A stretch of DNA of 64,000 nucleotides, taken from contig OZ037843.1 in NCBI GenBank assembly GCA_964035575.1, positions 1,240,001 to 1,304,000 of the forward strand. The letters run 5' to 3'. Position 1 is the first letter of the stretch. Every line of letters starts with the position of its first letter. The translations under genes were made by a program, and so were the position numbers. The DNA is from Rhynchopus sp. YZ270_cl-10 (Eukaryota). Of the stretch, positions 19,803-61,781 are shown one piece after another. Under the pieces are notes generated by a model. That model worked only from the letters and a program-made list of their open reading frames with translations. It was not told the origin of the DNA and searched no databases.

Positions 19803-22800
19803 ATGGTGTCATGCGGGATCCAGTCGCTGACAGTGCTGCTGTGTGTGGTGCTGATTCTGTCGACAGGTGCGATCATCGGTGGCTTCACTCTGTCAACATG
19901 GGACGACCTTCTGGAGAAGGCACGTGACACAGGTGACGAGGGCTTCGGGATGTGTCTCGACAGTGGTACGGCGGACATCGAAACGGTCTCGGCACGCTAC
20001 CTGCGATCTGTCCTTGGCAACGTGGACGCGGCAGTGAAGGAGTACCTGAAGATGCCTGAGCAGCTGATGATGTCTGTTGTCAACCTGGCACAGGCACACC
20101 ACCCAGACGTCAGCACGAGCCCTGCCTTTATCAAGAATATTGTGCGCCGTGCACTAATATCCTCTTTCAAGGCTGGTGCTGACGCTGGGCTTGCCTTCCT
20201 CGAATACGAAGCGTACCCGTGGAGTCCGGCACATCCTGTTCCGTGGAAAATGTCGGACGGGTACGCAGGGTGGGGCGCGCGGTCCAGGATAAGCCCATTG
20301 ACTACATTGGGAGGCATCCTGCCGACGAACGGCACGAAGGTTATCACGTTAATGGAACTGCTAGACCCGGTGACGCTGCAGCCAGGGCAATCGGACATGA
20401 TGGCCTATTCCGAAGTGAATGACGTGGGAGACTGGAAGTACCCCTCAGAGCCGTGCAACTTCCCAGACTACAGCAAAGGCGAGGTAAAGGGAATGTGCTT
20501 CTATCCCGCAGCTACACTCGAGCCCCCGGGTTCCGAAACCTATCTCGCCCATCAACGCGGGCTCCACAACTTGGGTGCTGACGACCCACCCCTAAACCCT
20601 GTACATACGTTTGCCTACGCACCCGCGGTAGCACGTTGGTCAAGCATGTATTGGGATATTAGCTACACCTTCACCCACCCAGATATGTACACGATGTACC
20701 CCAAGCAGGGCAAGCGTGTGGGTACTGTCACGTCCTCCGCGACTACACAGGGGATATCCGACGTGGTGCGTGCACAGCTGCTCCCGGCCGGCACGTCGCT
20801 GTACCTGGTGGAGGACTCCTCAGGATCAGTGGGGACAGTTGTCGCGTACAACAGAGGACGGGAGCTGAGGATGGTACGAGAAATGAGCGCGATTGGCATC
20901 GTGTTAAACCTTGCATACAGCATCAACATAACGAACCACTCGATGGAAGACGCAACATCGCACATCCCCTCAGTGATTGCAGAGCACGGGCAGTTTGCGT
21001 TCAGACTCCCGCGGAACTACAGAGACCTTGTGGAGATGACAAAGGCCTCCTTCCTGAAGTGGTCTGACTCGAACGGCACAGAGTTCTGGACAATCACGTC
21101 GACAATTGAACGTGGAACGATCTTCTGGTATTCAACCCTTCTTGTGCCTCGGACGTCTGTGATGGATACGATTGATGCGTCGACGAATGCAATCCGTGCG
21201 AAGGTGGCATCAGATCTGTCCTCTGCAGACGCACAGAAGGAGGATGCGGTGACTGTGATGGCGATTGTGACGGCTGTTGCGGTGATAGGACTTCTTGCCA
21301 TTGCTGTTGTGTTCACACGCTACATCACGTCACCTCTACTGAAGCTTGGGAGAGAGATGGCAAATGTGGCTGTGATGGACCTGGAGGCTGTGGACACGGG
21401 CCGTGCAGTGTCGCAGCTGAGTGAAGTGGGGATGATGCAGCGCAGCTTTGTTACCATGGTGGCGAACCTGCAGAAGTACAAGAAGTTCCTCCCTGGTGCG
21501 CTCTTTGAGGAGAAGGAGCAGGACATTGTGCGGAACTCACGACCACCACCTGGCATCACGAGCGGGACAGCCACGTTGGTGTTCACAGACATCCGTTCCT
21601 CGACTTCGATCTGGGAGGCTGTGCCTCAGGGTATGTGTGAAGCACTGAAGATCCACAACAGAATCATCCGAGAAGCGATGGATGAGTTTGAAGGCTACGA
21701 AGTGAAGACAATCGGGGACGCGTTTATGGTTGCATTTGCGACGGTGCTTGACGGTGTGAACTTCGGGTTGCGTGTGCACGAGGCTCTCCGCAATGCAACG
21801 TGGCCTGCAGAGTTGCTGCATTTCAAACTCTGTGCCGACACAGGACCACTCTGGGGTGGGCTGACTGTGCGCATTGGTGTGAACGCCGGCCCTGTGACTG
21901 TGGAGAAGAACACACTTACGGGGCGGACAGACTACTTCGGACACACTGTGAACGTGGCCTCTCGCCTTGAGAGCACGTGCCAGCCAGGTGCTGTTGGACT
22001 GCGTCATGAGGTGTGGCAGGAGGAGTGTTCTGGGGTGTGCAGTGCTGCTGTGGGTGAGGTGAACAGGATTGAGCTGAAGGGTGTGTCTGGGAAGACACCC
22101 GTGTGCTGTGTGTGGCCTCCCTCGCTTGCTGGGCGTGTGACGAACCCGCTGACAGAGCGACGCCTGTCTGCCGGCTCCTCCTCGGTCCACACTACTGCAT
22201 CTTCTGTGGTGTCACACACCTCAATCAAGACCATGAGCTCCACGTCCACGATGTCTTTACCGGGAAGTGTGTCGACGTCTGGGCGTCTGGCAACGGTCGG
22301 TATTGTGCAGGTAGCTGTCGGGGACGAAGCCCACGTTTCAGCAATGCGCACAATGTCAACACACTTGATAACGTTGAAGTCGTGTCTCGACCGCAGTGGT
22401 GGGCGTATGGTGTCAGTCATCGGCAGTTTTGTGTGCATCGCGTGGAACCTGTCACACGCGGCCCCAGCACACGTTGAGAACTCACTGCGCTTTGTGCAGT
22501 ATCTGCACGGCACGTCTTCGGTACGTGTTGGTGGCCTTGTGACCGGCACAGTGCACCATGGCGACGTGAGTGCGAAGACGTTGCGCTTCGTGACTGTGTT
22601 GGGAGACGCTGTGCAGAAGTGCTGGTGTCTGTGCATAGAGGCGAAGAAGGAGGAGGTGTTCTTCCTGTACGAGCCACCTGTGGACACAGTACTGCCGCAG
22701 AACCTTGAGCGTGCGCTGTCACCACATAGGACTGGTGTGTATGTGGTGAAGCAGAAGCGGGACACGTCGCAGTTGGATCCAGTTGTGGACAACTATATGC

Positions 22801-22805: not shown

Positions 22806-23039
22806 TGTGACCCACTGCAGGATCCTCCTTTTGTCAGGCAGGTGGTTAACTATGACTGTCACGCTTATGTGGATGAGATGCTGTCTTGCATCGTTGTTTT
22901 CCAACAACGGATATGGACTCGTCCGGAAACCCCCACACGGCATCCACCCCACAACGTTGCCTTGTCTTGCATCCTGTCTGTCCCCACACCACACCACACA
23001 TCCCAGACACTCTCTTCCCTTTCTGTACACCTCAGAACA

Positions 23040-25661
23040 ATGGTGTCATGCGGGATCCAGTCGCTGACAATACTGCTGTGTGTGGTGCTGATTCTGTCGA
23101 CAGGTGCGATCATCGGTGGCTTCACTCTGTCAACATGGGACGACCTTCTGGAGAAGGCACGTGACACAGGTGACGAGGGCTTCGGGATGTGTCTCGACAG
23201 TGGTACGGCGGACATCGAAACGGTTTCGGCACGCTACTTGCACTCTGTCCTCGTCAACGTGGACACGGCAGTGAAGGAGTACCTGAGGGTGCCTGAGCAG
23301 CTCGTGATGTCGCTCGCCACCCTGGCGAGGGCACGCCACCCCAACGTGAGCACGAGCCCTGCCTTTGGGGCGACAACAATACGTCCTGCGAGCATGGCTG
23401 CTCATGTGGCTGGGATGGCGTATGGTATGCTCAAGATCGGGCACGAAGCGTACCCGTGGTGTGCGGCACATCCTGTTCCGTGGAAGAGGGGTGACGGGTT
23501 TGCAGGGTGGGGCTCACGCACCTCACACAGGACACTGAACTCTGCGACTGGTGTCCTTCCTACTAATGGCACGAAGGTTCTCCTAGTGTATGAGTCGCGT
23601 GACCACGTGACGCTGGCAGAGGGACTTTCCGACTACGCTGTCATAGGAGAAGCCAACGAGGTGGGCGACATCAAGTATCCCCATCAGCCGTGCAACTACC
23701 GACCTGACTACAACAAAGGCGAGTTGCGTGGACTGTGCGTGTTGCCCATGAAGCACGCCGAGCCCGTAGGGAACCCGATCATAGCCCAACGCGGCAGAGA
23801 GCTCTACTTCCTGGGTGCCGATGATCCACCACTCAACCCTGTGGACACGCTTGTCTACGCACCTATGCAGGTCGCATGGGACTACACGTCCTGGGAGCTG
23901 AGCTATACCTACACCCACCCAGATATGTACACGATGTACCCCAAGCAGGGCAAGCGTGTGGGTTCCGTGAGTGCCACCGTGACTACAGACGGAGTGACCG
24001 ACGTGGTGCGTGCACAACTGCTCCCGACCGGCACGTCGCTGTACCTTGTGGATTACGAACGTGTATCTGGTTCAGTGGGGACAGTTGTTGCGTACAACAG
24101 AGGACGGCAGTTGTCGAAGGTGTTGGTACTTAATACCAATAACGGCGAATGGATGGACCAGGCATCGAGCATCAACATAACGAACCACTCGATGGAAGAC
24201 GCGACGTCGCACATCCCCTCAGTGATTGCAGAGCACGGGCGGTTTGTGTTCACACACCCGCGGAACTACAGAGACCTTGTGGAGAAGACAGAGGACTCCT
24301 TCCTGAAGTGGTCTGACTCGAACGGCACGGAGTTCTGGACAATCACGTCGACAATTGAACACAGAACGATCTTCTGGTATTCAACCCTTCTTGTGCCGAG
24401 GACGTCTGTGATGGACTCGATTGATGCGTCGACGAATGCAATCCGTGCGAAGGTGGCATCAGATCTGTCCTCTGCAGACGCACAGAAGGAGGATGCGGTG
24501 ACTGTGATGGTGGTTGTGACGGCTGTTGCGGTCATTGCGGCTCTTGCCGTTGCTGTTGTGTTCACACGTTACATCACGTCACCTCTGCTGAAGCTTGGGA
24601 GAGAGATGGCAAGTGTGGCTGTGATGGACCTGGAGGCTGTGGACACGGGCCGTGCAGTGTCGCAGCTGAGTGAAGTGGGGATGATGCAGCGCAGCTTTGT
24701 TACCATGGTGGCGAACCTGGTGGAGTACCGGAACTACATGCCGCAGAGTGTGCTTGTCAACGACACTGATGCCGAAGAAGCACTCTCAGACCGTACAGGG
24801 GCAGAGTCGGTGGTGTCCTCTTGCCATTCAGCCTCAGGGCCGCAGGAGCAAAGCTCTTCTCTTGACCAGAAGCAGAACCAAAAGGCACTGCGTGTGGAAG
24901 GGATGAAGAAGAAGAGGGTATCACTGGCACACATGAACGTCGTGTCGTGGCACGCCTTCTGTACAGAACATAATGACGCAGAGGTGCTCTCCGCACACGC
25001 AGGTGTGATTGAGAATATCCTGGCAGCAGTGCAGCACAACAAGGGCATGTGCGACACGTTTGCTGGCGACAAGATACTTGCCACCTTCAACGCCTTTGTT
25101 CCGAAGCCGTCACACAGTGTTTCCTGTGTGAAGGCTGCACACGAAGCAGCAAAAGCACTTGGTGATGTGCACACGATCTCGTATGGGTGCACGACAGGCG
25201 AGGCACGTGTCGGGAACATGGGTTGCAACGGGATGAAGAAGGTGTCGATTCTTTCGCAGTCCATGTCGTGGGTGGTTGTACTTGAGCGTTGGAACAGAAT
25301 GAACGCACTTCCTGGTGTTGTTGACCAGAACTCGGCGCGGGAGATGGAGGGACAGGTGGTCCTCCGTTGTGAAGGAGCTGTACTGTACGAGAAGTTCAGT
25401 GAGAAGGCGCAGACTGTGTTTGCTGTGAAGGGTCTGTGCAGCACGAAAGACGAGGAGTGGATGTACCAGCTGGAGTCCCTCGCACAAAGCAACCCTCATG
25501 CACTGTGGAATGAAGCTTTTGCACACATCATCGCACAGGAGTTTGGTCAAGCTGCTGTTGCGCTTGACAGCATCGGCACCGAGCAACGAGAGCACTACGA
25601 GACGCTAGCGAGATACGCCAATGCGAAGGCTTATGACCCTTTCGTTGTGTGTATGTACTAG
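23040..25661 (+). CDS. Receptor with degenerate (pseudo) class III cyclase domain, paralog 2 (873 aa)
   Basis: Same N-terminal and TM architecture as 19803-22805. The cytoplasmic domain VSLAHMNVVSW..CDTFAGDKILATFNA..GCTTGEARVGNMG..SILSQSMSWVVVLE keeps cyclase fold motifs but lacks the first Asp, the Lys and the Asn/Arg. Confidence 0.9.
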   Translation: MVSCGIQSLTILLCVVLILSTGAIIGGFTLSTWDDLLEKARDTGDEGFGMCLDSGTADIETVSARYLHSVLVNVDTAVKEYLRVPEQLVMSLATLARARHPNVSTSPAFGATTIRPASMAAHVAGMAYGMLKIGHEAYPWCAAHPVPWKRGDGFAGWGSRTSHRTLNSATGVLPTNGTKVLLVYESRDHVTLAEGLSDYAVIGEANEVGDIKYPHQPCNYRPDYNKGELRGLCVLPMKHAEPVGNPIIAQRGRELYFLGADDPPLNPVDTLVYAPMQVAWDYTSWELSYTYTHPDMYTMYPKQGKRVGSVSATVTTDGVTDVVRAQLLPTGTSLYLVDYERVSGSVGTVVAYNRGRQLSKVLVLNTNNGEWMDQASSINITNHSMEDATSHIPSVIAEHGRFVFTHPRNYRDLVEKTEDSFLKWSDSNGTEFWTITSTIEHRTIFWYSTLLVPRTSVMDSIDASTNAIRAKVASDLSSADAQKEDAVTVMVVVTAVAVIAALAVAVVFTRYITSPLLKLGREMASVAVMDLEAVDTGRAVSQLSEVGMMQRSFVTMVANLVEYRNYMPQSVLVNDTDAEEALSDRTGAESVVSSCHSASGPQEQSSSLDQKQNQKALRVEGMKKKRVSLAHMNVVSWHAFCTEHNDAEVLSAHAGVIENILAAVQHNKGMCDTFAGDKILATFNAFVPKPSHSVSCVKAAHEAAKALGDVHTISYGCTTGEARVGNMGCNGMKKVSILSQSMSWVVVLERWNRMNALPGVVDQNSAREMEGQVVLRCEGAVLYEKFSEKAQTVFAVKGLCSTKDEEWMYQLESLAQSNPHALWNEAFAHIIAQEFGQAAVALDSIGTEQREHYETLARYANAKAYDPFVVCMY

Positions 25662-27234: not shown

Positions 27235-27239
27235 GATCG

Positions 27240-30726: not shown

Positions 30727-31215
30727 AAGGAAATTTATTGCCTGAGGCAAATTTATTTCCTGAGGGAAATTTATTTCCTGGGGAAATTTATTTCCTGGGG
30801 CAAATTTCTTTCCTGGGGGAAATTTATTTCCTGAGGGAAATTTATTGCCTGAGGGAAATTTATTTCCTGGGGCAAATTTATTTCCCGAGGCAAATTTAGT
30901 GCCTGAGGGAAATTTATTTCCCGAGGCAAATTTATTTCCCGAGGGGAAATTTATTTCCTGGGGCAAATTTATTGCCCGAGGCAAATATATTTCCTGGGGA
31001 AAATTTATTTCCCGAGGGAAATTTATTGCCTGAGGGAAATTTATTTCCTGGGGCAAATTTATTGCCCGAGGCAAATTTATTTACTGAGGGAAATTTATTT
31101 CCTGGGGCAAATTATTTCCCGAGGGGAAATTTATTTCCTGAGGCAAATTTAGTGCCTGAGGGAAATTTATTTCCTGGGGGGAAATTATTTTCCTGGGGGG
31201 AAAATTTTTTCCCTG
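30727..31215. repeat. 18-19-bp minisatellite (GAGGGAAATTTATTTCCT variants), ~26 units
   Basis: Direct reading. Each unit is quasi-palindromic (GGAAAT..ATTTCC). Confidence 0.93.
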
Positions 31216-31349: not shown

Positions 31350-31673
31350 CTGTACTGCACTGTACTGTACTGTACTGTACTGTACTGTACTGTACTGTAC
31401 TGTACTGTACTGTACTGTACTGTACTGTACTGTACTGTACTGTACTGTACTGTACTGTACTGTACTGTACTGTACTGTACTGTACTGTACTGTACTGTAC
31501 TGTACTGTACTGTACTGTACTGTACTGTACTGTACTGTACTGTACTGTACTGTACTGTACTGTACTGTACTGTACTGTACTGTACTGTACTGTACTGTAC
31601 TGTACTGTACTGTACTGTACTGTACTGTACTGTACTGTACTGTACTGTACTGTACTGTACTGTACTGTACTGT
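31350..31673. repeat. (CTGTA)n pentamer microsatellite, ~64 units
   Basis: Direct reading. Confidence 0.98.
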
Positions 31674-33530
31674 GCGGAAATTGACCAAAAAACGAGAACT
31701 TGTCCATTTCGGCAAATTGACCCCACCACTGGCCGGATGGATTCCGGAAATGCAAATGCCGGCGTTTCTAAGCAAATTCTAACAGGGAAATAGCTTGGGT
31801 ACTTTTGCTGGTTTCAAAACCAGAACAAGCTGGTTTACTGGTTTGGGGAAAAATAAAAAAAAAAAGTGGGATTCGGGATTCAGTTATTCGTCGCCCCGCG
31901 CCACTTTCTTACTCACAGAAGAGAAAGCCTCACACGTAAGCGAACCCCTAAAAAGGGTTCATTGAGCGACTCTGTGGTGTAAAAAGCTGCATGTTTTGCA
32001 CTATACCCTAATTTTTTTCGCCTGCGGCGCCACTTTATATTATTTTTTTGCTCCGCAAAAAAATAGAGTTTACAATGTCGTAGGGAACCCCCTTGCATTT
32101 TGCGGCCACAAATGCAACTTGACCAAAGCTGCAAAAAGTTGACCGTTTTTTCAAAATGACCCACCGTTGTAACAGCTTCTGGAAGACGTATTGGCTTTGT
32201 ACGGTTAGTGAAACGTAAGGTGCAAGACCAAGCGCCGTTAACACAGGATTATATTCCATTTTCTTTGTTGTCTCGCAAAATTTACCCTTTGCCTCTCCAC
32301 TCTGCGGTTGGCAGGGAGGCGCGCGCGAAGCGCGCGACGACCGCTTTCAACCGGGGAAAATTTTTTCTAAACCAGCAAACCAGCAACATTTGAAAAGTGC
32401 ACCTTTCAAGCTACTACCCTGAATTCTAAGCAAGAGAGAAAAAAAAACACAAAAAAAAAAAAACACAAATTGTCAGGATCTTGATCAGGAAGAAGAAGAT
32501 TTGAGTCCGTGAAAAAAAAAAAATCTTCTTTAAGAACTTTCTGGTACCGTGCTTTTAAAAAATAAGTTTTTGTGATTTTTTGTGATTTTTTTGTGATTTT
32601 TTGTGAATAGTGTTGTTGCGGACACCCGGATCTCCCCAACTTAGTAATATTTAGCAAACAACCTCACTTTTCCTCTCCCCGCTTTGTACCCTATAGGACA
32701 ACAAGGCAAAGAGTCACGAGCCTCTCTCGAACGTTTTTAAAAGGTGACTAAGCACGAGAGGCTTAGGATCATCTTATAAACTTTTCTTTTTTTCTTTTTT
32801 TCCAACCCGTTCAAAAAGCTATTGTCCCCCCAAATTCCCCCCTCCAAACAAAGAGAATGGGGAGGGGAGGAATTCATCGCGCGACAATCGCAGCAGTAAT
32901 AGACTGTTGTGTTGAAGTGTTGTGTTACTGGATAAAGTGGAGCTTTTCAGCTTCCTTTGTTTCCTTCTTGCTGTCTGTAGAGGGCTTTGTATTTCAAGAA
33001 AAAACTTTCTTTGATTACCCTACGCAAGGGTGAGCCCGTTGTCCTATTCGGAAAATCCAATGTTCACATCAAAATGAAGACAAGAGGGAACTCCACTTTC
33101 TCACGGGATGTCCACAAAAAAAGACGACGGTGTTTTCTGTGTTTTCTTGTTTTCTGTTTTTATCAAATTTTCTTTGAGTACGCTACACAAAAGGTTTCGA
33201 TACCCGCCGAGAAACGCTGCCTGCGCCTGCCGAGGTACGGTGAGGCGTTTGCACTTTCAACTTCTGTTTTTTTCGTATATAAGTTTACACACACACACAC
33301 GGTGGCTTCAAACGGACCACCCCAAGGACAAAGTACTCCAACGTGCGCACCATAGTACCATTTGTTCCATGTGTTTGTGTGCCGGCTGTTTACATGCCCA
33401 GAAAACTTTGAGACGTCGAAAGACACACCCCGCCTCCCCTACTGTCTTGCCTTGTCTTGCATCCTGTCTGTCCCCACACCACACCACACATCCCCAGACA
33501 CTCTCTTCCCTTTCTGTACACCTCAGAACA

Positions 33531-36155
33531 ATGGTGTCATGCGGGATCCAGTCGCTGACAATACTGCTGTGTGTGGTGCTGATTCTGTCGACAGGTGCGA
33601 TCATCGGTGGCTTCACTCTGTCAACATGGGACGACCTTCTGGAGAAGGCACGTGACACAGGTGATGAGGGCTTCGGGATGTGTCTCGACAGTGGTACGGC
33701 GGACATCGAAACGGTCTCGGCACGCTACCTGCGATCTGTCCTTGGCAACGTGGACGCGGCAGTGAAGGAGTACCTGAAGGTGCCTGAGCAGCTCGTCGTC
33801 TCGCTCGCTACTCTAGCAGAGGCGTACCACCCAAACATCAGCACGAACCCCGCCTTTGCGCTTCAAACGATGCGTCCTGCGAGCATGTCTGCTTTTAAGG
33901 CTGGGTTGGCGTCTGGGGTGCTCATGATCGGTCACGAAGCGTACCCGTGGTGTGCGGCACATCCTGTTCCGTGGAAGAGGGGTGACGGGTTTGCTGGGTG
34001 GGGCTCACGCACCTCACACAGGACAGTCAATTCTGCGAGTGGTGTCCTGCCTAAGAATGGCACCAAGGTTCTCATGCTCTATGAGACACGTGACCACGTG
34101 ACGCTGGCAGATGGACTTTCCGACTACACTATCTACACAGAAATCAACCGGATGGGCGGCATCAGAGACCCTTCACAGCCGTGCAACTATCATCCTGACT
34201 ACAACAAGAACGAGGTGCGTGGGCTCTGCATATTCAACGTCGCTAACTCCGAACCCGTAGGCGACCCAATCATTGCCCAACGTGGGAGACAGATGTGGTT
34301 CCTGGGTGCCGATGATCCACCACTCAACCCTGTGGACACTCTTGTCTACTCACGCATGCAGACTACATGGGACTACATGTCCTGGGAGCTGAGCTACACC
34401 TACACCCACCCAGATATGTACACGATGTACCCCAAGCAGGGCAAGCGTGTGGGTGCTGCAGTTGCCACCGTGACTGCAGACGGAGTGACCGACGTGGTGC
34501 GTGCACAGCTGCTCCCGACCGGCACGTCGCTGTACCTGGTGGAGGACGATCGTGCATCTGGATCAGTGGGGATAGTTGTCGCGTACAACAGAGGAAGGCA
34601 GGTGACGAAGGTGGCAACACCCACCTGGACTGGCTCAGTGGTGGACATCGCATCCAGCATCAACATAACGAACCACTCGATGGAAGACGCAACGTCGCAC
34701 ATCCCCTCAGTGATTGCAGAGCACGGGCGGTTTGTGTTCACACACCCGCGGAACTACAGAGACCTTGTGGAGAAGACAGAGGACTCCTTCCTGAAGTGGT
34801 CTGACTCGAACGGCACGGAGTTCTGGACAATCACGTCGACAATTGAACACAGAACGATCTTCTGGTATTCAACCCTTCTTGTGCCTCGGACGTCTGTGAT
34901 GGATACGATTGATGCGTCGACGAATGCAATCCGTGCGAAGGTGGCATCAGATCTGTCCTCTGCAGACGCACAGAAGGAGGATGCGGTGACTGTGATGGCG
35001 ATTGTGACGGCTGTTGCGGTGATAGGACTTCTTGCCATTGCTGTTGTGTTCACACGCTACATCACGTCACCTCTGCTGAAGCTTGGGAGAGAGATGGCAA
35101 GTGTGGCTGTGATGGACCTGGAGGCTGTGGACACGGGCCGTGCAGTGTCGCAGCTGAGTGAAGTGGGGATGATGCAGCGCAGCTTTGTTACCATGGTGGC
35201 GAACCTGGTGGAGTACCGGAACTACATGCCGCAGAGTGTGCTTGTCAACGAGAGTGAGGGACCACAAGAAGAGTCATCACGATCATGTGGCACGATGTCG
35301 CAGTCGGGCATGTCCAGGCATTCACGTGTGACTGCGAAAACTAACGCCACTTCTGCTGCTACGTTGCAGAACCAGAAGGCACTGCTGCGTGTGGACGGGA
35401 TGAAGAAGAAGAAGGTGTCGCTGGCACACATGAACGTCGTGTCGTGGCACGCCTTCTGCAAGAAGCACAAGGACGCAGAGGTGCTCTCCGCACACGCAGG
35501 TGTGATTGAGAGGATCCTGACAGCAGTGCAGCACAACAAGGGTGTGTGCGACACGTTTGCTGGCGACAAGATGCTTGCCACCTTCAACGCCTTTGTTCCG
35601 AAGTCGTCACACAGTGTTTCCTGTGTGAAGGCTGCACACGAAGCTGCAAAAGCACTTGGTGATGTGCACACGATCTCGTATGGGTGCACGACAGGCGAGG
35701 CACGTGTCGGGAACATGGGTTGCAACGGGATGAAGAAGGTGTCGATTCTTTCGCAGTCCATGTCGTGGGTTGTTGTGCTTGAGCGTTGGAACAAGAAGTT
35801 CAACCTGCCTGGTGTCATTGACCGCAACTTGTCACGTGAGGCAGAGGGACAGGTGGTGCTCCAGTGTGCAGGTGCTGTGCTGTACGAGAAGTTCAGTGAG
35901 AAGGTGCAGACTGTGTTTGCTGTGAAGGGTCTGTGCAGCAGCGAAAACGAGGAGTGGATGTACCAGCTGGAGTCTGCCTCAAACAACCCGCACGCACTGT
36001 GGAACGAGGTCTTCGAGCACATCATCAAACAGGACTTTGAGAAGGCGTCTTCTCTGCTGGACTACGTCGCTCAGGACCAACGCACACTTTACGAAGAGCT
36101 TATGGGCTATGTGGAGGCGAAGGCTTATGCCGCCCACGTTGCTGATCTACACTGA
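33531..36155 (+). CDS. Receptor with pseudo-cyclase domain, paralog 3 (874 aa)
   Basis: Intact ORF from the conserved ATG, with the same architecture and motifs as 23040-25661. Confidence 0.9.
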   Translation: MVSCGIQSLTILLCVVLILSTGAIIGGFTLSTWDDLLEKARDTGDEGFGMCLDSGTADIETVSARYLRSVLGNVDAAVKEYLKVPEQLVVSLATLAEAYHPNISTNPAFALQTMRPASMSAFKAGLASGVLMIGHEAYPWCAAHPVPWKRGDGFAGWGSRTSHRTVNSASGVLPKNGTKVLMLYETRDHVTLADGLSDYTIYTEINRMGGIRDPSQPCNYHPDYNKNEVRGLCIFNVANSEPVGDPIIAQRGRQMWFLGADDPPLNPVDTLVYSRMQTTWDYMSWELSYTYTHPDMYTMYPKQGKRVGAAVATVTADGVTDVVRAQLLPTGTSLYLVEDDRASGSVGIVVAYNRGRQVTKVATPTWTGSVVDIASSINITNHSMEDATSHIPSVIAEHGRFVFTHPRNYRDLVEKTEDSFLKWSDSNGTEFWTITSTIEHRTIFWYSTLLVPRTSVMDTIDASTNAIRAKVASDLSSADAQKEDAVTVMAIVTAVAVIGLLAIAVVFTRYITSPLLKLGREMASVAVMDLEAVDTGRAVSQLSEVGMMQRSFVTMVANLVEYRNYMPQSVLVNESEGPQEESSRSCGTMSQSGMSRHSRVTAKTNATSAATLQNQKALLRVDGMKKKKVSLAHMNVVSWHAFCKKHKDAEVLSAHAGVIERILTAVQHNKGVCDTFAGDKMLATFNAFVPKSSHSVSCVKAAHEAAKALGDVHTISYGCTTGEARVGNMGCNGMKKVSILSQSMSWVVVLERWNKKFNLPGVIDRNLSREAEGQVVLQCAGAVLYEKFSEKVQTVFAVKGLCSSENEEWMYQLESASNNPHALWNEVFEHIIKQDFEKASSLLDYVAQDQRTLYEELMGYVEAKAYAAHVADLH

Positions 36156-52575: not shown

Positions 52576-53292
52576 GTACGGTGTAAAAATCTAGCTTTTT
52601 ACACCACAGAGCCACTCAAACGAACCCTTTTTTGCGGAGCAAAAAATGAAAAATGGCGCCGCAGGCAAAAAAAAATCAAGGAACAGCCATTTCCCAAAGG
52701 CACTCCCGTGGTTCAACCACGGTTCTTCCAGGCGGGGGAAAAATGCGGGGAAAACAATCGAGTCCGCCCTAATCTGGGGACGACATTTACAGAAAGGTCT
52801 GGTGAAAAGTGTCGGTATTTTTTTCCCCTCCAGATTTCTCTGTTTTTTTTTTTTTTTTGAAAACCAGTTTTTGGAAAAACTGGTTTTCAAAACCAGTTTT
52901 TTTAACCACCCTAATACCCTGGATAAAACAAAAAAGCTTGCGTTTCCTTTACTTTTGAATCCCGATCCCACTTTTTTTTTAACCAAAAGAAAACCGACGC
53001 AGGAGCTTTTCTTGGAACTGTTTTATTCTCCCTACCCCAACAACATCACATTTCAGAAAAACATTGTTTTTTCGTTTTTGTTCACTTTCTTTTCTTCTCC
53101 CTCACACCTGTTTGCTGTGAATTAAATTTTTTCGTTTTTTGTGTGCGTTTTTTGTGAGATGGCACATAGGATGACGCGGGCGCAACGCGTCGGAACGGAG
53201 TGAGGAGTTGGTTGGAGGAGAAGGTGAGTTTGCGTCTGGCAGCGAATGCGCGCAGGGAGGAAGCCCGGGTGCCACAATTTTTTCGTTTTGTA

Positions 53293-53536
53293 TAAGAGTT
53301 GACTGTGCCTGCGTACTTCGACTCGCAGCGTCAGGCGAAGAAGGACGTAGGGGCGATTCTCGGGGATGGACGTGCTGTGCATCATCAACGAACCGACTGT
53401 GGATGCGATTGCGTACGGAATGGACAACGCGAGCGAGAGCCAGAAGAACATCCTGATCTTCGACCTGGGTGGCGGTACCTTCGATGTGACGCTTCTGGTG
53501 ATTGACGGGGGGATCTTCTAGGTGAAGGCGACTGCG

Positions 53537-53568
<32 letters not shown>

Positions 53569-54570
53569 CAACCGGATGGTGAACCACTTCGTGGAGGAGT
53601 TCAAGAAGAAGCGCCAGAAGCACCTGATGACGTACCAGCGTGCGGCGCCGTGTGCCTGTGAGCGTGCTAAGTGTGCGCTGTCGTCGGCGGCACAGACCAG
53701 CATTGAGATCGACTCGCTATTTGAGGGGACAGACTTCTACTCGTCGATCACACGTGTGACGTTCGAGGAGCTGTGCACGGACCTGTTCAAGTCGTGCCTG
53801 CGCGCTGTGGAGTCTGTCTTGAATGGCTCGAAGCTTGAGGTGCGACATTACGGAGGTTGTGCTGATCGGAGGATCGACCGGCGATGGTGTCGGACTTCTT
53901 CGGCGGAAAGGACCTGAACAAGTCGATCAACCCCGACGAGGCTGTTGCCTTTGGCGCTGCGGTGCAGGCCCTTGTGCTGACGGGGGGAAAGAGCACGCAA
54001 ACGGAGCAGATCCTGCTGATGGACGTGACGCCGCTGACTGTCGGGATTAAGACGGACGGGGGTGTGATGGCACCGCTGATCAAGAGGAACACGACGATCC
54101 CGACGAAGAAAAGCCGGGAGTTCTCGACGTGCGGACAACCAGAATGTTCTGTGTTCGAGGGGGAGAGCGCGATGACGAAGGACTGACACCAGCTCGGAAC
54201 GTTTTGACCCGGCAGGGATCCCGCCGGCCCCACGTGGAGTGTCCCAGATTGAGGTCACCTTTGACGTCGACGCGAATGGCATCATGGACGTGTCTGCCGA
54301 GGACTAGTCGACCGGGAACTTCCGGGGAAGAAGTCGCAGGTCATCATCACCAACGACAAGGGCCGTCTGTCCCAGAAGGAAATTGCCGACATGTGCAACG
54401 ACGCAGAGAAGTTCGCTGAGGCCGACAAGCAGGCGCGTGCGTGTCGGCGCCAGACACTCGAGACCTACGCCCACCAGATGGTCACCACCCTCGAGCTCTG
54501 CGGCACTGAGGCCACCAAGGAGGAGTTCCAGTCCTCCCAGAGGAAGCTGGAGAGGACCTGCAGCACCTGA
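53293..54570 (+). pseudogene. HSP70: HSP70 pseudogene fragment (5'-truncated, multiple stops and frameshifts)
   Basis: [120 protein letters not shown]. Confidence 0.93.
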
Positions 54571-54809
54571 CGAAGCTAACAGATGGCTATTCGTACAGCA
54601 GTGTAGAGGCAGGGAAGGAGTTATCGGCGGAAGCGTTTGGCTGATACGTGGCTCGATGTCGTTCACGAAGAAAGCAAAGCCGGAACATCACCTTCAACAA
54701 GCTGTTCGGGGCGTACTGTGTCGTGGTGTGCCTGAGGGACCTTGGCTCCGTGGATGAAGGCGTTTACAGTGTGGAGCTTGTTAGCGCACCTACGCCAAGA
54801 TTGTACGCG

Positions 54810-55150
54810 GCAAGGTAGACTACGGCGATGGGAGTACCTATCAAGTACTTATGAAGGGCAAATCCGTCATGGAAAATGAGAAGGTAAAGACACCCTGATG
54901 TACAGTGCCTGCGATGAGTATGAAGGCGATTGGGTGGACGACAAAAAGAATGGGGTACGCTGTTTCAGTAGAGGGACGTATGTGGGTGAATGGAAGGATG
55001 ATAAGATGCATGGACCGGGACGGTAACGTTTGAGGATAAGTCGCGGTACGAAGGGCAGTATTGCGAGGATAAGATGGAAGGGCAGGGCAAGCTGCTCTAC
55101 GCGAATGGAAACAGATACGACGGTGGTTCTGTGAACAACTGCAAACACGT
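54810..55150 (+). pseudogene. MORN-repeat protein fragment (disrupted)
   Basis: YEGDWVDDKKNG; YVGEWKDDKMHGPGTVTFEDKSRYEGQYCEDKMEGQGKLLYANGNRYDG. Confidence 0.8.
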
Positions 55151-56719
55151 TAAAGGGCATATCTTCTAAGAAGCCACCAAGGACATCGTCGAGCTGCAGG
55201 GTGTGCGGCAGCAAGGTCGTGCGAGTGAACGTTACGGCAGGGACGGGTATTGTGGCCTCCCGCAGGAGCGTGTAGTCGTTAGCCCACGGAGGCACTCTAA
55301 CGACCTCACGAAGGATGCTGCATGGATATTTTTCTGGAGAACACCGAGAACGCGAACGTCGCCCCACAGCCAGTAGAGGTAGGTGAAGACATGACGCTCG
55401 TCGACCCTGCTACGGTGGTGTGCAACCACAGCACCCTCCCGAGCGAGTGGGTGCGTTTTTCCCTGCACGGGGACGACGACTGTGCTGTGCTGTGGATGTG
55501 CGTCTGAGTGACGTGACTGGCGAGGCGTGTATGTCACTGGTACCACTTTGAGGGTTTTGAGTGCATCAAGGATGTCAACACGACACGAGGTCTACCTGTA
55601 GCTGGTGTGGCAGCTTCTCTGTGCACTATCACGTCGAGCCCTCCGTGAGGTAGACATATCGCTTTTTATCTGCGAGAGTGTCCAGCAATTCCCCTACGTT
55701 GGCGCTACCGTCTCGCTCATGAGGAGTGCAGGTGTTGCGGAACGGGGGCGTGTGGCTTGACGCGCGGACGGAGCAGGCGGCACTGGGCCCCGGCTGGCTC
55801 AGGAAGGTTCTGCTGTTCCCGGCCACAATGGTGTGCTGCTTTGGGAGCATAGGCTGGTGCGGCAACCGAGGGCGGCGTTCCCTCGGATGAACCGGCTGTA
55901 GCAACTGGGTGCACTCTGCCTGAAGGTGCAGGGACAGGCTGATCCATTTGCCGAAGGTGCTCCTTGCGGAAATTCCTGGGTGGTGAGGCTTGGCTGCAGG
56001 CGTGCGTGCCCAGAACTGTGCATAGTCCGTTTACATCAGCTCGGATGAGAGTGTAGCTGGGGGTGCGCTGGCGTTGCTGAACCCTTGGGGGAGGTGGTGT
56101 TACGTGTCTCTTGGAAGTGGACGGCGACTTTGCTGTTCAAGCCCCCACCTCAATCTGGCGGAGAGAGCTGGTGGTAGCGCTGATTGCGACGGCTACGGCG
56201 GATATGCGCTGTTTGACTGGGATTGCTTTCGAGGTGTTCCACGACACTGGTACAGTTGTGTCGAGGCAACGAAAGCTGCGCTCTCCCCACCCAGGCGAAA
56301 GTCTGTTGATCGCGGAGTTTGGTGGGTGATATGTGCGGATGGAGATGTGCGCACGCACCATGTGACAACGGGGTACTTGGTCGCGGATATGGATACCTGG
56401 TGGGGTGTTTGTCAATTATGTGGGTCTGTTACGTTTCCTGGGGCACGTCTTTTGTGATGCTTCTCTGTTGTTCTTAGTCTTTCGTTTCTGTGAGGCGGGG
56501 GGGGAGGGGGGGGGGAGGGGGGGTTTTTTCTGGTCCTGGTCGCATACTGCGAGTTTTCCTGGAAGCGCAGGAAAAATGACTGGGGAGTGTTGGTGGCTCC
56601 GTGACGCCACAGAGCCGGCACACTCGTTGAGTGCCTCACAAAACCTAAAAATTTATTCCGCTTTGATTTTATTTATTGTCTTCACGCTATATTGTTGTTG
56701 TTGGGTTGGGAAATAAAAT

Positions 56720-58029
56720 AACCAAAAGAAAACCGACGCAGGAGCTTTTCTTGGAACTGTTTTATTCTCCCTACCCCAACAACATCACATTTCAGAAAAA
56801 CATTGTTTTTTCGTTTTTGTTCACTTTCTTTTCTTCTCCCTCACACCTGTTTGCTGTGAATTAAATTTTTTCGTTTCCCTCCCTCCCTCCCTAATTTGTG
56901 TCTTTTATTTTCCAGTTTGTTCGAACCGTTGAATTGTAGGCCCTATGGTGGTCAGGTGGGCCCTTTTTGTTTCAGTGTGTTCATGCGTAGGGTCCGAGTT
57001 GGCCTAGTGAACCTGAATTACCCCTTGTTTCAGTGCGGCCATGCAGAATGGACCTGAATCACCCCTTGTTTCAGTGTGTTCATGCGTAGGGTCCTTAGTT
57101 GGCCTAGTGAACCTGAATCACCCCTTTATTTCAGTGAACCACCCCGTGAGCGCGGATCACCCGTTGAATGGCCTTGCCTCTTGAAGGTTCTGGTCAGGTG
57201 GTGCTCAGGGTGTAAAACAGTTCTTGTTTAATGTGTTCTACTCGTTTAACCTATGGTGGTCAAGTGGTGTTGCAGGGTGTAAAAACAGATTTTTGGGGCG
57301 AAGTGGAGTTCAAAGTGTTAAACGGATGTGTGTTCAGTGCGTACCTCGTGTGGTATTTCTTGGTACTGTTTCCCTGTGCTAGTCTCACTCACATGTGTGT
57401 TCCATGCGGAGGGTCCTTAGTTGGACTAGTGGACATGAATCACTCCTTTTGTATCAGTGTGTTCTGTGTGGAGGTCTCTTAGTTGGCCTAGTGTAACTTC
57501 AACCTCTCTTTTTGCTTCAGTGTGTTCCATGCGGAGGGTCCTTAGTTGGCCTAGTGGACATGAATCACCCCTTTTGTATCAGTGTGTTCTGTGTGGAGGT
57601 CTCTTAGTTGGCCTAGTGTACTTCAACCTCCCTTTTTGCTTCAGTGTGTTCCATGCGGAGGGTCCTTAGTTGGCTTAGTGGACAGTTTTCTTGTACAGTG
57701 CAAACCCGTAAACGGGTTTGCGGGTTTAGCTGGCCTTAGTGGACCGAACCAACTTTGTGTTTTCAATGCGCCAGTAGCGTGGCTTGTCTTGGTCTTGATT
57801 TATCTCTACTTTAGCAGCAAAAATCCTGCACTCCCTAGTCCCATCCTGGTCGCATACTGCGAGTTTTCCTGGAAGCGCAGGAAAAATGACTGGGGAGTGT
57901 TGGTGGCTCCGTGACGCCACAGAGCCGGCACACTCGTTGAGTGCCTCACAAAACCTAAAAATTTATTCCGCTTTGATTTTATTTATTGTCTTCACGCTAT
58001 ATTGTTGTTGTTGGGTTGGGAAATAAAAT
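56720..58029. mobile_element. Cargo-carrying element, unit 2 (head-to-tail with unit 1): end A, tandem-repeat interior, end B
   Basis: Same ends as unit 1. The junction reads ...GGGAAATAAAA-T-AACCAAAAG... Confidence 0.75.
56968..57683. repeat. ~61-bp tandem repeats (two clusters, ~56968-57140 and ~57393-57683; second cluster alternates as a ~123-bp dimer)
   Basis: Unit CAGTGTGTTCCATGCGGAGGGTCCTTAGTTGGCCTAGTGGACATGAATCACCCCTTTTGT and variants. Confidence 0.85.
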
Positions 58030-59164
58030 TTATTTTCCCCCAAACCAGTAAACCAGCTCGTTCTGGTTTGAAACCAGTAAAAGTACCGAAACTATTTCCC
58101 TGATTTTTTGTGGGATTTGGTCCCACATAAAGACATCACTACCCGCAGTGTCCCACCACTTTATTTCGTATTTTTGTGGTCCTGTTACGAAATGGTACCG
58201 ATAGCGATCTACAGTTTGACCTGTCGCGACCTGTCGTTTCACGAGTAGTACCACAAACCAAGCCATTTGCTTCACCGTCATGTGCGAAGTGTACCGTAAA
58301 AGTGCCAACGATCTGAACGTAACGAACCGGCCATGGCTACGCGCTATGCTGCTACCCGCAGCGAGCTTACGAAACGCAGCCCACCTGCGGTGGCTGCTCA
58401 GAGTCTGGTGCCAGGCTGATCCTTTCTGAGTAGGTTTTTAGAGTGATTTTTGCTTATGAACGCCTTTGCCGTTTTGTGTAAAAACGTGGGTTACATTGTA
58501 CTGCACGGGTACGTGTACACCACCCTGTGGCCCACACTTGGTTCTGAAACCCCAGAGTCGCGTTTTCCACCATACTCAGATCTCGGCTCACAAAAATCAA
58601 AAAGGTGAAACTCCCGATTTTTTGTGAACCGCCCATTTTTGCCTGGGGAACCCTGTAGAAACACACGTACCAAGGCGTTTTTACACCTAAACTCGCGAGC
58701 AAAAGCTCTCCACACGGGCACTTTTTCCTCTTTTACACATTTTTTTTGCCCATTTTCTCATTTTGCACAGGGATTTACCTTTGTCATTTTTTCACAACAA
58801 CAAACAATTTTTTGTTTTAGTCGTGGCTGAGGCGTACTTAAACGTAAGTAATCCCGAATACGCCTCAGATGCGTTTTTCAGCCAGACCGTTTTTCATCAG
58901 TTTTCGGCCTCGCTGCATTGTATGTTTAAACATCCGTAATTGGAACCAATTCTGAAATCCGTGATCGGCCCCGTAGGTGAATGTTGCACGCGCTGCCGGT
59001 ACTGGAAACTAGGTGTCGGCGAGCAACTTACAACCCTATCCAAAGTATTGATATTTCTTGAAAAAGCCACCCATTATGTAGGGCCGGGTAAAATGGCGGC
59101 ACAAGGCACCCACCACACCACACCTCCCCAGACACTCTCTTCCCTTTCTGTACACCTCAGAACA

Positions 59165-61781
59165 ATGGTGTCATGCGGAATCCAGTCGCTGACAATGCTG
59201 CTGTGTGTGGTGCTGATTCTGTCGACAGGTGCGATCATCGGTGGCTTCACTCTGTCAACATGGGACGACCTTCTGGAGAAGGCACGTGACACAGGTGATG
59301 AGGGCTTCGGGATGTGTCTCGACAGTGGTACGGCGGACTTCGAAACGGTCTCGGCACGCTACCTGCGCTCTGTCCTTGGCAACGTGGACACGGCAGTGAA
59401 GGAGTACCTGAAGGTTCCTGAGCAGCTCGTGGTCTCGCTTGCCACCCTGGCACAGGCACACCACCCAAATGTGAGCACGAGCCCTGCCTTTGCAGCTTCC
59501 CATTTGCGTCCTGCAGTCATGTCTGCCTTTATGGCTGGGAAGGAGTCTGGAATTCTACGGTTCGGGCACGAAGCGTACCCGTGGTGTGCGGCACATCCTG
59601 TTCCGTGGAAGAGGGGTGACGGGTTTGCAGGGTGGGGCTCGCGGATGTCGTACATGAATGATGCGGGTGCTCACATGACGACTAATGTCACCAGCCCTAT
59701 CTTGCTGTATTCTACACGTGACCTCCTGACGCTGTCAGGGACTTTCCGACTATGTTGTCTTCACAGAAATCGACAAGCTCGGCGACATCAGAGACCCCTC
59801 ACAGCCGTGCAAGTACAATCCTGCCTACAACAAAGGCGAGATGCGTGGACTGTGCATATTCCCCATCCTGATTATCGAACCCCCGAACTTCGCAACCGTT
59901 GCCCAACGTGGGAGACAGATGTGGTACCTGGGTGCCGACGATCCACCACTGAACCCTGTGGACACTCTTGTTTATTCCAGCATGCAGGTGCAGTGGGACT
60001 ACACGGCGTGGGAGCTGAGCTACACCTACACCCACCCAGATATGTACACGATGCACCCCAAGCAGGGCAAACGTGTGGGTTCAGTAGTTGCCACCGTGAC
60101 TGCGAAAGGGGTGTCTGACGTGGTGCGTTCACAGCTGCTCCCGACCGGCACGTCGTTGTACCTGGTGGATGACGACCGTGCATCTGGTTCAGTGGGGACA
60201 CTTGTTGCGTACAACAGAGGACGGCACGTGACGCTCGCGAGAACCCAAAAGACCATCTACATCGAATTTGCGTCGAGCATCAACATAACGAACCACTCGA
60301 TGGAAGACGCGACGTCGCACATCCCCTCAGTGATTGCAGAGCACGGGCGGTTTGCGTTCACACACTCGCGGAACTACAGAGACCTTGTGGAGAAGACAGA
60401 GGACTCCTTCCTGAAGTGGTCTGACTCGAACGGCACGGAGTTCTGGACAATCACGTCGACAATTGAACACAGAACGATCTTCTGGTATTCAACCCTTCTT
60501 GTGCCGAGGACGTCTGTGATGGATACGATTGATGCGTCGACGAATGCAATCCGTGCGAAGGTGGCATCAGATCTGTCCTCTGCAGACGCACAGAAGGAGG
60601 ATGCGGTGACTGTGATGGCGATTGTGACGGCTGTTGCGGTGATAGGACTTCTTGCCATTGCTGTTGTGTTCACACGCTACATCACGTCACCTCTGCTGAA
60701 GCTTGGGAGAGAGATGGCAAGTGTGGCTGTGATGGACCTGGAGGCTGTGGACACGGGCCGTGCAGTGTCGCAGCTGAGTGAGGTGGGGATGATGCAGCGC
60801 AGCTTTGTTACCATGGTGGCGAACCTGGTGGAGTACCGGAACTACATGCCGCAGAGTGTGCTTGTCAACGAGAGTGAGGAGGAGGAAGAACCCACAGAAT
60901 CAGCTGAGTCCACGCAGAAGTCCAAAACAAAGGGTAGGTCTGGTGACTCATCCCGTTCGGAGTTGTCGAAGGCGCACAGCTCAGAGGTGGTGCAGAACCA
61001 GAAGGCACTGCTGCGTGTGGACGGGATGAAGAAGAAGAAGGTGTCGCTGGCACACATGAACGTCGTGTCGTGGCACGCCTTCATCAAGAAGCACAAGGAC
61101 GCAGAGGTGCTCTCCGCACACGCAGGTGTGATTGAGAGGATCCTGACAGCAGTGCAGCACAACAAGGGTGTGTGCGACACGTTTGCTGGGGACAAGATGC
61201 TTGCCACCTTCAACGCCTTTGTTCCGAAGTCGTCGCACAGTGTTTCCTGTGTGAAGGCTGCACACGAAGCAGCAACAGCACTTGGTGATGTGCACAAGAT
61301 CTCGTATGGGTGCACGACAGGCGAGGCACGTGTCGGGAACATGGGTTGCAACGGGATGAAGAAGGTGTCGATTCTCTCGCAGTCCATGTCGTGGGTGGTT
61401 GTGCTTGAGCGTTGGAACAAGAAGGAGAAGCTGCACGGTGTCATTGACCGCAACGTGTCACGTGAGGCAGAGGGACAGGTGGTGCTCCGTTGTGCAGGTG
61501 CTGTGCTGTTCGAGAAGTTCAGTGAGAAGGTGCAGACTGTGTTTGCTGTGAAGGGTCTGTGCAGCAGCGAAAACGAGGAGTGGATGTACCAGCTGGAGTC
61601 TGCCTCAAACAACCCGCACGCACTGTGGAACGAGGTCTTCGAGCACATCATCAAACAGGACTTTGAGAAGGCGTCTTCTCTGCTGGACAGCGTCGCTCAG
61701 GACCAACGCACACCTTACGAAGAGCTTGTGGGCTATGTGCGGCAGAAGGCTTATGCACCGTTCGTTGTGAAAATGCACTAA
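59165..61781 (+). pseudogene. Receptor with pseudo-cyclase domain, paralog 5, frameshifted by a 2-bp deletion near 59737
   Basis: ACGCTGTCAGGGACTTTCC here versus ACGCTGGCAGAGGGACTTTCC in paralogs 2 and 4. Otherwise collinear and open. Confidence 0.85.

Follow-up and report, generated by a model that had tools for sequence, protein, structure and literature searches.

A 64-kb stretch of the genome of Rhynchopus sp. YZ270_cl-10 (contig OZ037843.1, positions 1,240,001 to 1,304,000, hereafter “the window,” to which all coordinates refer) carries five paralogous genes for two-pass membrane receptors at positions 19803–61781, all on the + strand and here called P1 to P5. Four of these receptors, P2–P5, end in a predicted class III cyclase homology domain (CHD) that keeps one of the six canonical catalytic residues and that very likely cannot make cyclic AMP (cAMP). 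By the comparisons described later, this dead domain defines an old and conserved family of its own, homologous to the second, degenerate domain found in euglenozoan receptor cyclases, and it may act as a noncatalytic switch or scaffold. The remaining receptor, P1, combines the sensor and membrane part of this family with a complete adenylate cyclase module and appears to be a one-off recombinant.

Layout of the receptor array

All five receptors consist of a first transmembrane segment (TM1), an ectodomain of about 450 residues with a variable core, a second transmembrane segment (TM2), a HAMP-like segment, and a conserved linker, “EY(R/K)xY(M/L)P.” In P2–P5, the linker is followed by a low-complexity tether of about 50 residues, by the dead cyclase homology domain, for which we use the name pCHD, and by a helical tail that begins with EWMYQ. 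P1 runs from TM1 through its variable ectodomain, TM2, and the HAMP-like segment to CHD1, a linker rich in Ser and Thr, and CHD2, where CHD1 and CHD2 denote the first and second domain of its cytoplasmic part.

P1 (19803–22805, 1000 residues), the chimeric receptor adenylate cyclase, and P2 (23040–25661, 873 residues), a dead-cyclase receptor, were read as open reading frames (ORFs). The dead-cyclase receptors P3 (33531–36155, 874 residues) and P4 (38131–40737, 868 residues) were delimited by translation and tblastn, and P5 (59165–61781) by DNA alignment to P4 and by tblastn in two frames. Relative to P4, P5 has a 2-nt deletion at approximately 59737–59738, and its reading is split over two overlapping ORFs, 58940–60118 and 59841–61781. 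The assembly therefore holds three intact dead-cyclase receptor genes, P2–P4, and one frameshifted copy, so that the four pseudo-cyclase receptors counted in the initial annotation are all present and one of them is not intact. In contigs assembled from four public sequencing runs, the 59664–59757 bin that contains the P5 frameshift had no cover at 98% likeness. Searches of the window by tblastn with P2 and with the cytoplasmic part of P1 revealed no paralog or fragment beyond P1–P5; with the P1 cytoplasmic module, P1 alone was found, CHD1 being absent from P2–P5.

The C-terminal domain of P2–P5 has a predicted cyclase fold

The pCHD is located at 24906–25451 in P2, 35403–35948 in P3, and 39985–40530 in P4 (all +). 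The Pfam Guanylate_cyc model gave no match in P2–P5 at E ≤ 0.1, and it found none of 11 relatives at the same threshold and none of 30 family representatives at E ≤ 1e-3. Searched as a single sequence, the C-terminal 263 residues of P2 matched the solved cyclase 2w01_A marginally (E = 0.079); when a profile built from eleven family members was compared with PDB sequences, it matched the same entry at E = 2.3e-4. In a comparison of language-model features, 27 of the 30 best matches for pCHD were Guanylate_cyc clusters.

Structure prediction gave a similar result. The AlphaFold2 (AF2) model of pCHD, based on an alignment of 120 sequences, had a mean predicted local distance difference test score (pLDDT) of 94.3 and a predicted template modeling score (pTM) of 0.90. 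Foldseek matched this model to 192 PDB entries at E ≤ 1e-3, with 2w01_A on top (E = 2.6e-12) and class III cyclases in all rows listed. The VIA comparison aligned 180 residues with CyaB of Pseudomonas aeruginosa (3r5g_B; Z = 21.3; root mean square deviation [rmsd] = 1.8 Å), and 50 of 50 rows were cyclases. The models thus predict that pCHD is a full-size class III cyclase homology domain, and the cyclase fold on which the initial annotation depended for P2–P5 is upheld at this level.

Behind pCHD lies a C-terminal helical extension (P2, 25452–25658; P3, 35949–36152; P4, 40531–40734; all +), for which AF2 predicts four helices (model residues 197–252). The residues that open it, E196, W197, M198, and Y199, are each kept in at least 90% of the 120 family sequences. 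Among the VIA matches listed, none covers this tail (model residues 193–263).

Lost catalytic residues and a conserved signature

The translations of P2–P5 contain HMN, DTFAGD (DTFTGD in P4), and SMSWVVVL, exactly the motifs that had been singled out as replacing the catalytic ones. To relate them to function, residue positions were mapped via the HMMER alignment to 2w01 and counted over 120 family sequences; the roles of these positions are those generally assigned in class III cyclases, in which the canonical set comprises two metal-binding Asp, a substrate-specifying Lys and Asp, and a transition-state Asn and Arg. The position of the first metal Asp is occupied by Asn in 111 of the 120 sequences and by Asp in none, and the second metal Asp is present in all 120. 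The Lys position holds Thr, Val, Ser, and others, never Lys, and the purine-specifying position is Lys or Arg throughout (120/120). At the transition-state Asn position, Pro, Ser, or Thr accounts for 111 of the 120 sequences, and Asn is not among the six commonest residues (together 116 sequences); at the transition-state Arg position, Ala or Val is found in 92, and Arg is not among the six commonest residues (together 110 sequences).

Hence, a single canonical residue of six, the second metal Asp, is kept in pCHD, and the catalytic depletion suspected for P2–P5 extends, by these counts, to the family as a whole. Because five of the six catalytic residues are lost, P2–P5 likely signal without making cAMP, and it is very likely that the dead receptors cannot make it.

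The domain nevertheless has a signature of its own, consisting of N..W/F, F.GD[R/K], FN, G..G.MKK, LER, and EWMYQ. One column is invariant and 14 are kept in at least 90% of the 120 sequences, those of EWMY among them. Within the window, the ratio of nonsynonymous to synonymous substitution rates (dN/dS) of pCHD is 0.39–0.77, and in a comparison of 56 close paralogs few parts of the protein are as well conserved as pCHD and its tail (column conservation, 0.83–0.96). These substitution patterns indicate that pCHD is under purifying selection and is maintained, not decaying. The possibility that the dead receptors are decaying pseudogenes was considered and ruled out by the dN/dS values, the conserved columns, and the conservation over the 56 paralogs.

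pCHD is related to the second domain of receptor cyclases

The second domain of P1, CHD2 (22284–22685, +), was delimited by AF2 and by hhalign to pCHD. In the AF2 model of the cytoplasmic part of P1 (CHD1, linker, and CHD2; pLDDT 82.7, pTM 0.54), residues 210–245 are disordered, and CHD2 is predicted with pLDDT above 90 and with the element order β-α-β-β-α-β-β-α-β, as in a cyclase domain. The degenerate second domain reported for P1 is therefore real. The structural search with this two-domain model covered residues 2–199, that is, the CHD1 part.

Profile–profile alignment with hhalign related CHD2 to pCHD over 101 columns (probability 95.3%, E = 2.4e-8). The E value for pCHD versus CHD1 was 0.014, and that for CHD1 versus CHD2 was not significant (E = 0.47). 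Profiles were required to see this relationship, since BLASTP of the P2 C terminus against the cytoplasmic part of P1 gave nothing significant (best E = 0.87). A phmmer search with P2 pCHD over 121 proteins of the cyclase family, P1's own module included, matched the second domain in 39 of them and CHD1 in none. CHD2 itself is conserved behind CHD1 in all 121 of these proteins, a count that is biased by the way in which they were retrieved. In addition, the HAMP-like helix is followed in both families by the same linker, NL.EY(R/K)xY(M/L)P.

We conclude from these alignments that pCHD is homologous to the degenerate CHD2 and not to the catalytic CHD1. A receptor of the P2–P5 type, with its HAMP-like segment, shared linker, low-complexity tether, and CHD2-like domain, consequently looks like a two-domain receptor cyclase without CHD1. 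In passages of the literature on euglenozoan and trypanosomatid receptor cyclases, we met no mention of a CHD2-like second domain.

The dead domain defines an old and widespread family

An exhaustive HMMER search with the 263-residue domain retrieved 784 cluster representatives at E ≤ 1e-3, 317 of them at E ≤ 1e-10 and 31 at E ≤ 1e-30. In the best 150 of the 784, the domain lies at or near the C terminus of proteins of 231–2000 residues. A word-based homology search confined to proteins of 1953–5000 residues gave two irrelevant matches and no information on taxonomic range. Full-length P2 matched 69 proteins, about 60 of which are 64–81% identical and the distant relatives 34–38%. Of ten clusters that were looked up, six were named, coming from Rhynchopus euleeides, Diplonema ambulator, Lacrimia lanifica, Artemidia motanka, and Apiculatamorpha spiralis (two clusters). 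The named members thus span diplonemids and a prokinetoplastid, and those from Apiculatamorpha bear the KEGG label “adenylate cyclase.” This distribution indicates that the dead domain defines an old, conserved family.

The sensors in front of the domain were surveyed by a Pfam scan of 30 representatives. Seven had PA plus Laminin_G_3 and one had Laminin_G_3 alone; dCache_1 was the sole sensor match in two and appeared weakly in one of the PA plus Laminin_G_3 proteins. A Bmp plus Kelch sensor was found in Lacrimia lanifica and a sterol-sensing/Patched sensor in Artemidia motanka (one representative each), and 18 of the 30 had no Pfam match. The PA plus Laminin_G_3 proteins that end in pCHD include one from Diplonema ambulator. 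The PA plus Laminin_G_3 sensor type also occurs on live cyclases.

P1 is a recombinant with a complete cyclase module

P1 matches Pfam Guanylate_cyc (PF00211) over residues 588–760 with E = 5.1e-27 and 95.1 bits, against a cut-off of 21.9. The catalytic domain, CHD1, lies at 21570–22127 (+), and the translation shows FTD, VKTIGD, TDYFG, and NVASR, which together provide all six canonical residues, as originally reported. The best structural matches of the CHD1 model are the Trypanosoma brucei adenylate cyclases 1fx4 (Z = 24.8, rmsd = 2.1 Å, 198 aligned residues, 30% identity) and 1fx2 (Z = 24.4), with 29–30% identity for both. On this sequence and model evidence, the cytoplasmic module of P1 is a complete adenylate cyclase module of the trypanosome type.

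This module belongs to another family than the rest of the protein. The 431 cytoplasmic residues match 406 proteins at E ≤ 1e-3; the 120 matches listed all carry PF00211 and, P1 itself aside, are 49–93% identical over 91–100% of the query. P1 residues 570–1000 are 81–93% identical to cyclases with SBP_bac, PA plus Laminin_G, or other ectodomains. Among the 69 proteins matched by full-length P2, on the other hand, one bears PF00211, and that one is P1. P1 follows the dead-cyclase family up to ...MVANL (21470); from QKYKKFLPGALFEE on, it follows the receptor-cyclase family almost letter for letter, which places a recombination junction at 21470–21475 (+). The unitigs of the four public runs branch precisely at 21470/21475 into loose ends whose sequences match the two alternative continuations, and none of the pieces listed bridges the junction. 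In a profile search with the family ectodomain, the best 70 of 86 domain rows outside the family included none of 119 retrieved cyclase-family proteins.

From these alignments, we conclude that P1 is a one-off recombinant of a dead-family sensor, transmembrane, and HAMP-like part with a CHD1 plus CHD2 module. It would have arisen through recombination inside the shared linker, by which the module was placed on the dead-family part. A role of P1 as the hub of the system, as the combinatorial scheme of the initial annotation would imply, is not supported, as P1 is the sole cyclase-bearing protein among the 69 family matches and the dead-domain family is far older and wider.

Gene conversion accounts for the shared chassis

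TM1, a hydrophobic stretch in the translation, lies at 19827–19892 in P1, 23064–23129 in P2, 33555–33620 in P3, and 38155–38220 in P4; TM2 with the HAMP-like segment, identified by a sub-threshold Pfam HAMP match, lies at 21246–21470, 24495–24719, 34983–35207, and 39577–39801, respectively (all +). DNA identity among the five paralogs was taken in 150-nt windows of their alignment. It is 98–100% over nt 1–150, which encode the N terminus and TM1, falls to 53–93% in the ectodomain core (nt 300–1100), and returns to 92–100%, P1 included, over the end of the ectodomain, TM2, and the HAMP-like segment (nt 1200–1650). Beyond approximately nt 1650, P1 is unrelated to P2–P5 (about 48% identity). The near-identity of TM1, TM2, and HAMP-like DNA noted at the outset is thus confirmed, and the variable part of the receptors is indeed the ectodomain core.

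Synonymous divergence (dS) follows the same pattern. It is 0–0.04 in TM1, 0.01–0.10 in the membrane-proximal ectodomain, and 0–0.14 in TM2 and the HAMP-like segment, compared with 0.17–0.70 in the ectodomain core (dN/dS 0.55–0.79) and 0.53–1.13 in the tether. The homogenization includes noncoding DNA: a 5′ leader of about 60–90 nt directly before each ATG (...CACCACACCACACAT..CCCCAGACACTCTCTTCCCTTTCTGTACACCTCAGAACA-ATG) is near-identical among the paralogs, at approximately 19743–19802, 22950–23039, 33441–33530, 38071–38130, and 59105–59164. The comparison of flanks found no conservation among the paralogs further 5′ of this leader or in the 3′ flanks. The leader may represent a shared 5′ untranslated region with a trans-splice acceptor.

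Taken together, the identity of the chassis is, by its pattern of substitutions, the signature of segmental gene conversion in a tandem array, a process that would homogenize the 5′ leader, TM1, and the part that runs from the membrane-proximal ectodomain into the HAMP-like segment and would leave the ectodomain core to diverge. Because dS collapses in these segments and the 5′ leader is homogenized too, the near-identity of the TM and HAMP-like DNA is no evidence for a shared dimer interface, the use to which it had been put in the initial annotation. At the protein level, the TM2/HAMP sequence is strongly conserved across species, with a prokinetoplastid relative matching at about 1e-19.

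The assignment of the HAMP-like segment rests on its position directly after TM2, as expected of HAMP, and on Pfam HAMP (PF00672) matches that stay below the cut-off in all five paralogs (E = 0.0035–0.02; 15.7–18.1 bits versus 25); matches at E ≤ 0.1 were obtained in 8 of 11 family members (best E = 9.7e-5). For the ectodomains of P1–P5, Pfam gave no dCache match. One of eleven relatives had a weak dCache_1 match (E = 0.0051), language-model features placed the ectodomain with dCache_1/PDC clusters at 0.93–0.95, which is a lead only, and hhalign of the family ectodomain against that of a dCache-bearing relative gave E = 0.012. The ectodomain is, on these leads, possibly dCache-like. Of the three Pfam models proposed earlier as a check of the array, Guanylate_cyc recognizes P1 and not P2–P5, HAMP remains sub-threshold in all five, and dCache has no match in P1–P5.

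Possible functions of the dead receptors

The initial annotation had proposed a combinatorial sensing system, in which many variable and catalytically dead receptors heterodimerize through the TM/HAMP region with an active cyclase, and had named signaling without cAMP as an alternative. The cyclase fold, the loss of catalytic residues, and the variable ectodomain of the combinatorial proposal stand; P1 as its hub and the TM/HAMP identity as evidence for an interface do not. We favor the alternative, to which we would give an even chance: the pCHD receptors may signal independently of cAMP, with pCHD as a noncatalytic switch or scaffold and with P1 as the exception. Variable, possibly dCache-like ectodomains would bind different ligands, and ligand-driven dimerization or rearrangement would draw together two pCHDs on their flexible tethers. 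The domain, which retains one metal Asp, has a near-invariant Asn where the other would be, and conserves basic residues (GD[R/K], GMKK), would then engage a putative downstream partner through its pocket and/or the EWMYQ helical tail, no cAMP being made. P1 would convert the same kind of sensing into cAMP. The survey of the 30 representatives, in which pCHD follows diverse sensors and Guanylate_cyc is matched in none at E ≤ 1e-3, speaks for cAMP-independent signaling, since it suggests that the output of pCHD is independent of any particular partner.

Several points weigh against this interpretation. The evidence for the fold of pCHD consists of predicted structures, and the cyclase-type fold that CHD2 is predicted to have is based on transitive homology and on the order of secondary structure elements. 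Known HAMP-cyclases use rigid helical coupling; the disordered tether of about 50 residues argues against such coupling here. Independent reads, as represented by the unitigs of the four runs, confirm neither the P1 junction nor the P5 frameshift. The kept metal Asp and the many basic residues leave some nucleotide chemistry conceivable for pCHD. Finally, the homology of pCHD to CHD2, which stands beside CHD1 in 121 of 121 proteins, is equally compatible with pCHD being a regulator that binds CHD1.

This last point leads to the strongest competing explanation, which we regard as possible but distinctly less probable than cAMP-independent signaling, namely that the dead receptors are trans-regulators. 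A tethered pCHD would dock on CHD1 of P1 or of other receptor cyclases and, by blocking or stabilizing CHD1 homodimerization, would allow many dead receptors to tune cAMP output via their ligands. The active site of class III cyclases lies at the interface of a functional dimer, CHD2 stands behind CHD1 in each of the 121 cyclase-family proteins compared, and a long, flexible tether would serve a domain that must find a partner. Mixed dimers are physically plausible because P1 shares its TM and HAMP-like segments with the dead copies, and there is a precedent in the Leishmania rac array, where rac-B1 negatively regulates rac-A according to a passage of PMC4413820. However, CHD1 holds all six residues itself, like homodimeric cyclases, and does not need a complementing partner. 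AF2 predicts no confident packing of CHD1 on CHD2 (pTM 0.54), and the single two-domain match, human soluble adenylate cyclase (4ust), aligned at an rmsd of 15.1 Å. Of the 69 family members, one has a cyclase on this chassis; the TM/HAMP sequences of the nearest cyclases are different, and the conserved EWMYQ helical tail of pCHD is missing from CHD2.

Two further explanations fit the data less well. The dead receptors could be decoys, ligand sinks, or adhesion or transport-related surface proteins, with the cytoplasmic domain as a mere folded anchor, which would agree with the absence of catalytic residues and of a known partner and with the many copies with variable ectodomains. We consider this improbable, because pCHD and its tail rank with the most conserved parts over the 56 paralogs and have been kept from diplonemids to a prokinetoplastid, which is unexpected of a passive anchor. 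Least probable of all, and in our view very hard to sustain, is that pCHD is still an enzyme, either a divergent nucleotidyl cyclase or a related transferase with noncanonical residues. In its favor, the domain has the complete CHD fold, never varies at one metal Asp, nearly always has Asn at the other metal position, and conserves several basic residues; relatives also carry the label “adenylate cyclase” in one public source, by way of KEGG. Yet the transition-state pair and the substrate-specifying pair are replaced family-wide, the first metal Asp is never present, and the Pfam cyclase model fails in the relatives (0/11 at 0.1) and representatives (0/30 at 1e-3) alike.

Building on cAMP-independent signaling, we tentatively propose a more general picture, which we hold with less confidence than that reading itself. 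Diplonemids and their relatives, possibly all Discoba, would have a second receptor system parallel to the receptor cyclases, with dozens of surface receptors per genome and a dead-cyclase output derived from CHD2 that works as a cAMP-independent switch via its pocket and EWMYQ tail. Live and dead outputs would be swapped by recombination at the shared linker, and P1 would capture one such exchange as it occurs.

Comparison with known systems

Structurally, CHD1 of P1 is closest to the trypanosomatid receptor adenylate cyclases (GRESAG4/ESAG4 of T. brucei; 1fx2 and 1fx4). Those proteins, too, are surface receptors with a large ectodomain that form large paralog families in tandem arrays with gene conversion, the latter being mentioned for receptor adenylate cyclase repertoires in a passage of PMC7719234. 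In contrast to them, P1 has two TM segments, a HAMP-like segment, another type of ectodomain, and a degenerate CHD behind CHD1, and P2–P5 lack any catalytic domain. The order of TM, periplasmic-type sensor, TM, HAMP, and CHD is also that of bacterial-type dCache-HAMP-CHD cyclases and of the eukaryotic “NCIII” nucleotidyl cyclase subfamily, for which PMC6366073 describes TM, HAMP, and cache domains in Euglena and Naegleria. The receptors described here differ from both in that their CHD has lost five of six catalytic residues family-wide and in having a disordered tether and an extra helical tail; their ectodomain gives dCache/PDC-like leads only, and a dCache assignment is unproven.

Leishmania rac-B keeps a recognizable cyclase domain. 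The partner domain of the Rhynchopus array, unlike that of rac-B1, belongs to a distinct, ancient, and residue-depleted family. Both are euglenozoan tandem arrays of receptor-cyclase paralogs; for the Leishmania array, the negative regulation of rac-A by rac-B1 is attributed in PMC4413820 to Sanchez et al. 1995. The mammalian membrane adenylate cyclases (C1/C2), soluble adenylate cyclase, and soluble guanylate cyclase (α/β) resemble P1 in that a CHD that has lost catalytic residues stands beside a catalytic CHD. In those enzymes, however, the halves complement each other into one active site, whereas CHD1 is self-complete and CHD2 or pCHD would supply none of it; no C1/C2-like packing is predicted for CHD1 and CHD2, and in P2–P5 the degenerate domain stands alone.

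A literature search for diplonemid, kinetoplastid, and euglenozoan cyclases and for pseudo-cyclases and pseudoenzymes found no dead-cyclase receptor family. The word “cyclase” is absent from the main texts of the Diplonema genome paper (PMC10161547) and of a Paradiplonema proteomics paper (PMC12697944); in supplementary file 5 of the former, cyclase orthogroups are given by count only. Although the parts are of known kinds (a class III cyclase fold, a HAMP-like segment, and possibly a dCache-like sensor), we did not find in print a large and ancient receptor family with a residue-depleted cyclase domain as its sole output, the derivation of such a domain from the second domain of euglenozoan receptor cyclases, or a swap of live and dead outputs at a shared linker.

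For annotation, these results imply that some of what is automatically called “adenylate cyclase,” as in the KEGG label on relatives, is a distinct, conserved receptor family that very likely cannot make cAMP and has its relatives in a second domain of euglenozoan receptor cyclases that had gone unremarked. Should the dead domain signal alone, it would constitute a new kind of output module in the chemoreceptors of eukaryotes. Should it instead regulate live cyclases, it would provide a mechanism that merges the input of many ligands in a single cAMP signal, and perhaps a hint at what is done by the tail that follows the catalytic domain of trypanosome receptor cyclases. In either case, the array offers a clean example of segmental gene conversion and domain swapping.

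Other features of the window

The large ORFs of the window are all on the + strand, and GC content is about 55–57% in coding stretches and 42–47% in spacers. Upstream of the array lie an ORF at 10429–11691 with an N-terminal ubiquitin domain (E = 2.5e-8) followed by BspA-type leucine-rich repeats (LRR_5, 6.2e-20), a 639-residue protein at 12091–14010 with two ankyrin-repeat blocks, each followed by TIR_2 (5.9e-41, two stretches), and a 310-residue, secreted-looking, Cys-rich protein at 16568–17500 with a DUF3472 match (4e-13), all +. Between P4 and P5, positions 44344–49266 (+) encode a Cys-rich and Ser-rich repetitive protein of 1640 residues with a signal-like N terminus, a C-terminal hydrophobic segment, and no Pfam match; its gene contains a 36-nt tandem repeat at 45096–45230.

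In the region of about 52600–55400, a short ORF (53522–53917, +) matches Hsp70 (5.4e-27). The Hsp70 frame is broken into short ORFs, suggesting a pseudogene or an intron-containing gene. On the opposite strand, 53102–53623 matches PF10712 “NAD-GH,” which is known as an antisense-of-Hsp70 artefact. Tandem repeats in the spacers comprise two 100% identical copies of 263 nt at 18377–18907, 27 copies of an 18-nt unit at 30729–31212, 65 copies of CTGTA at 31350–31673, and 2.3 copies of a 125-nt unit at 57395–57684.

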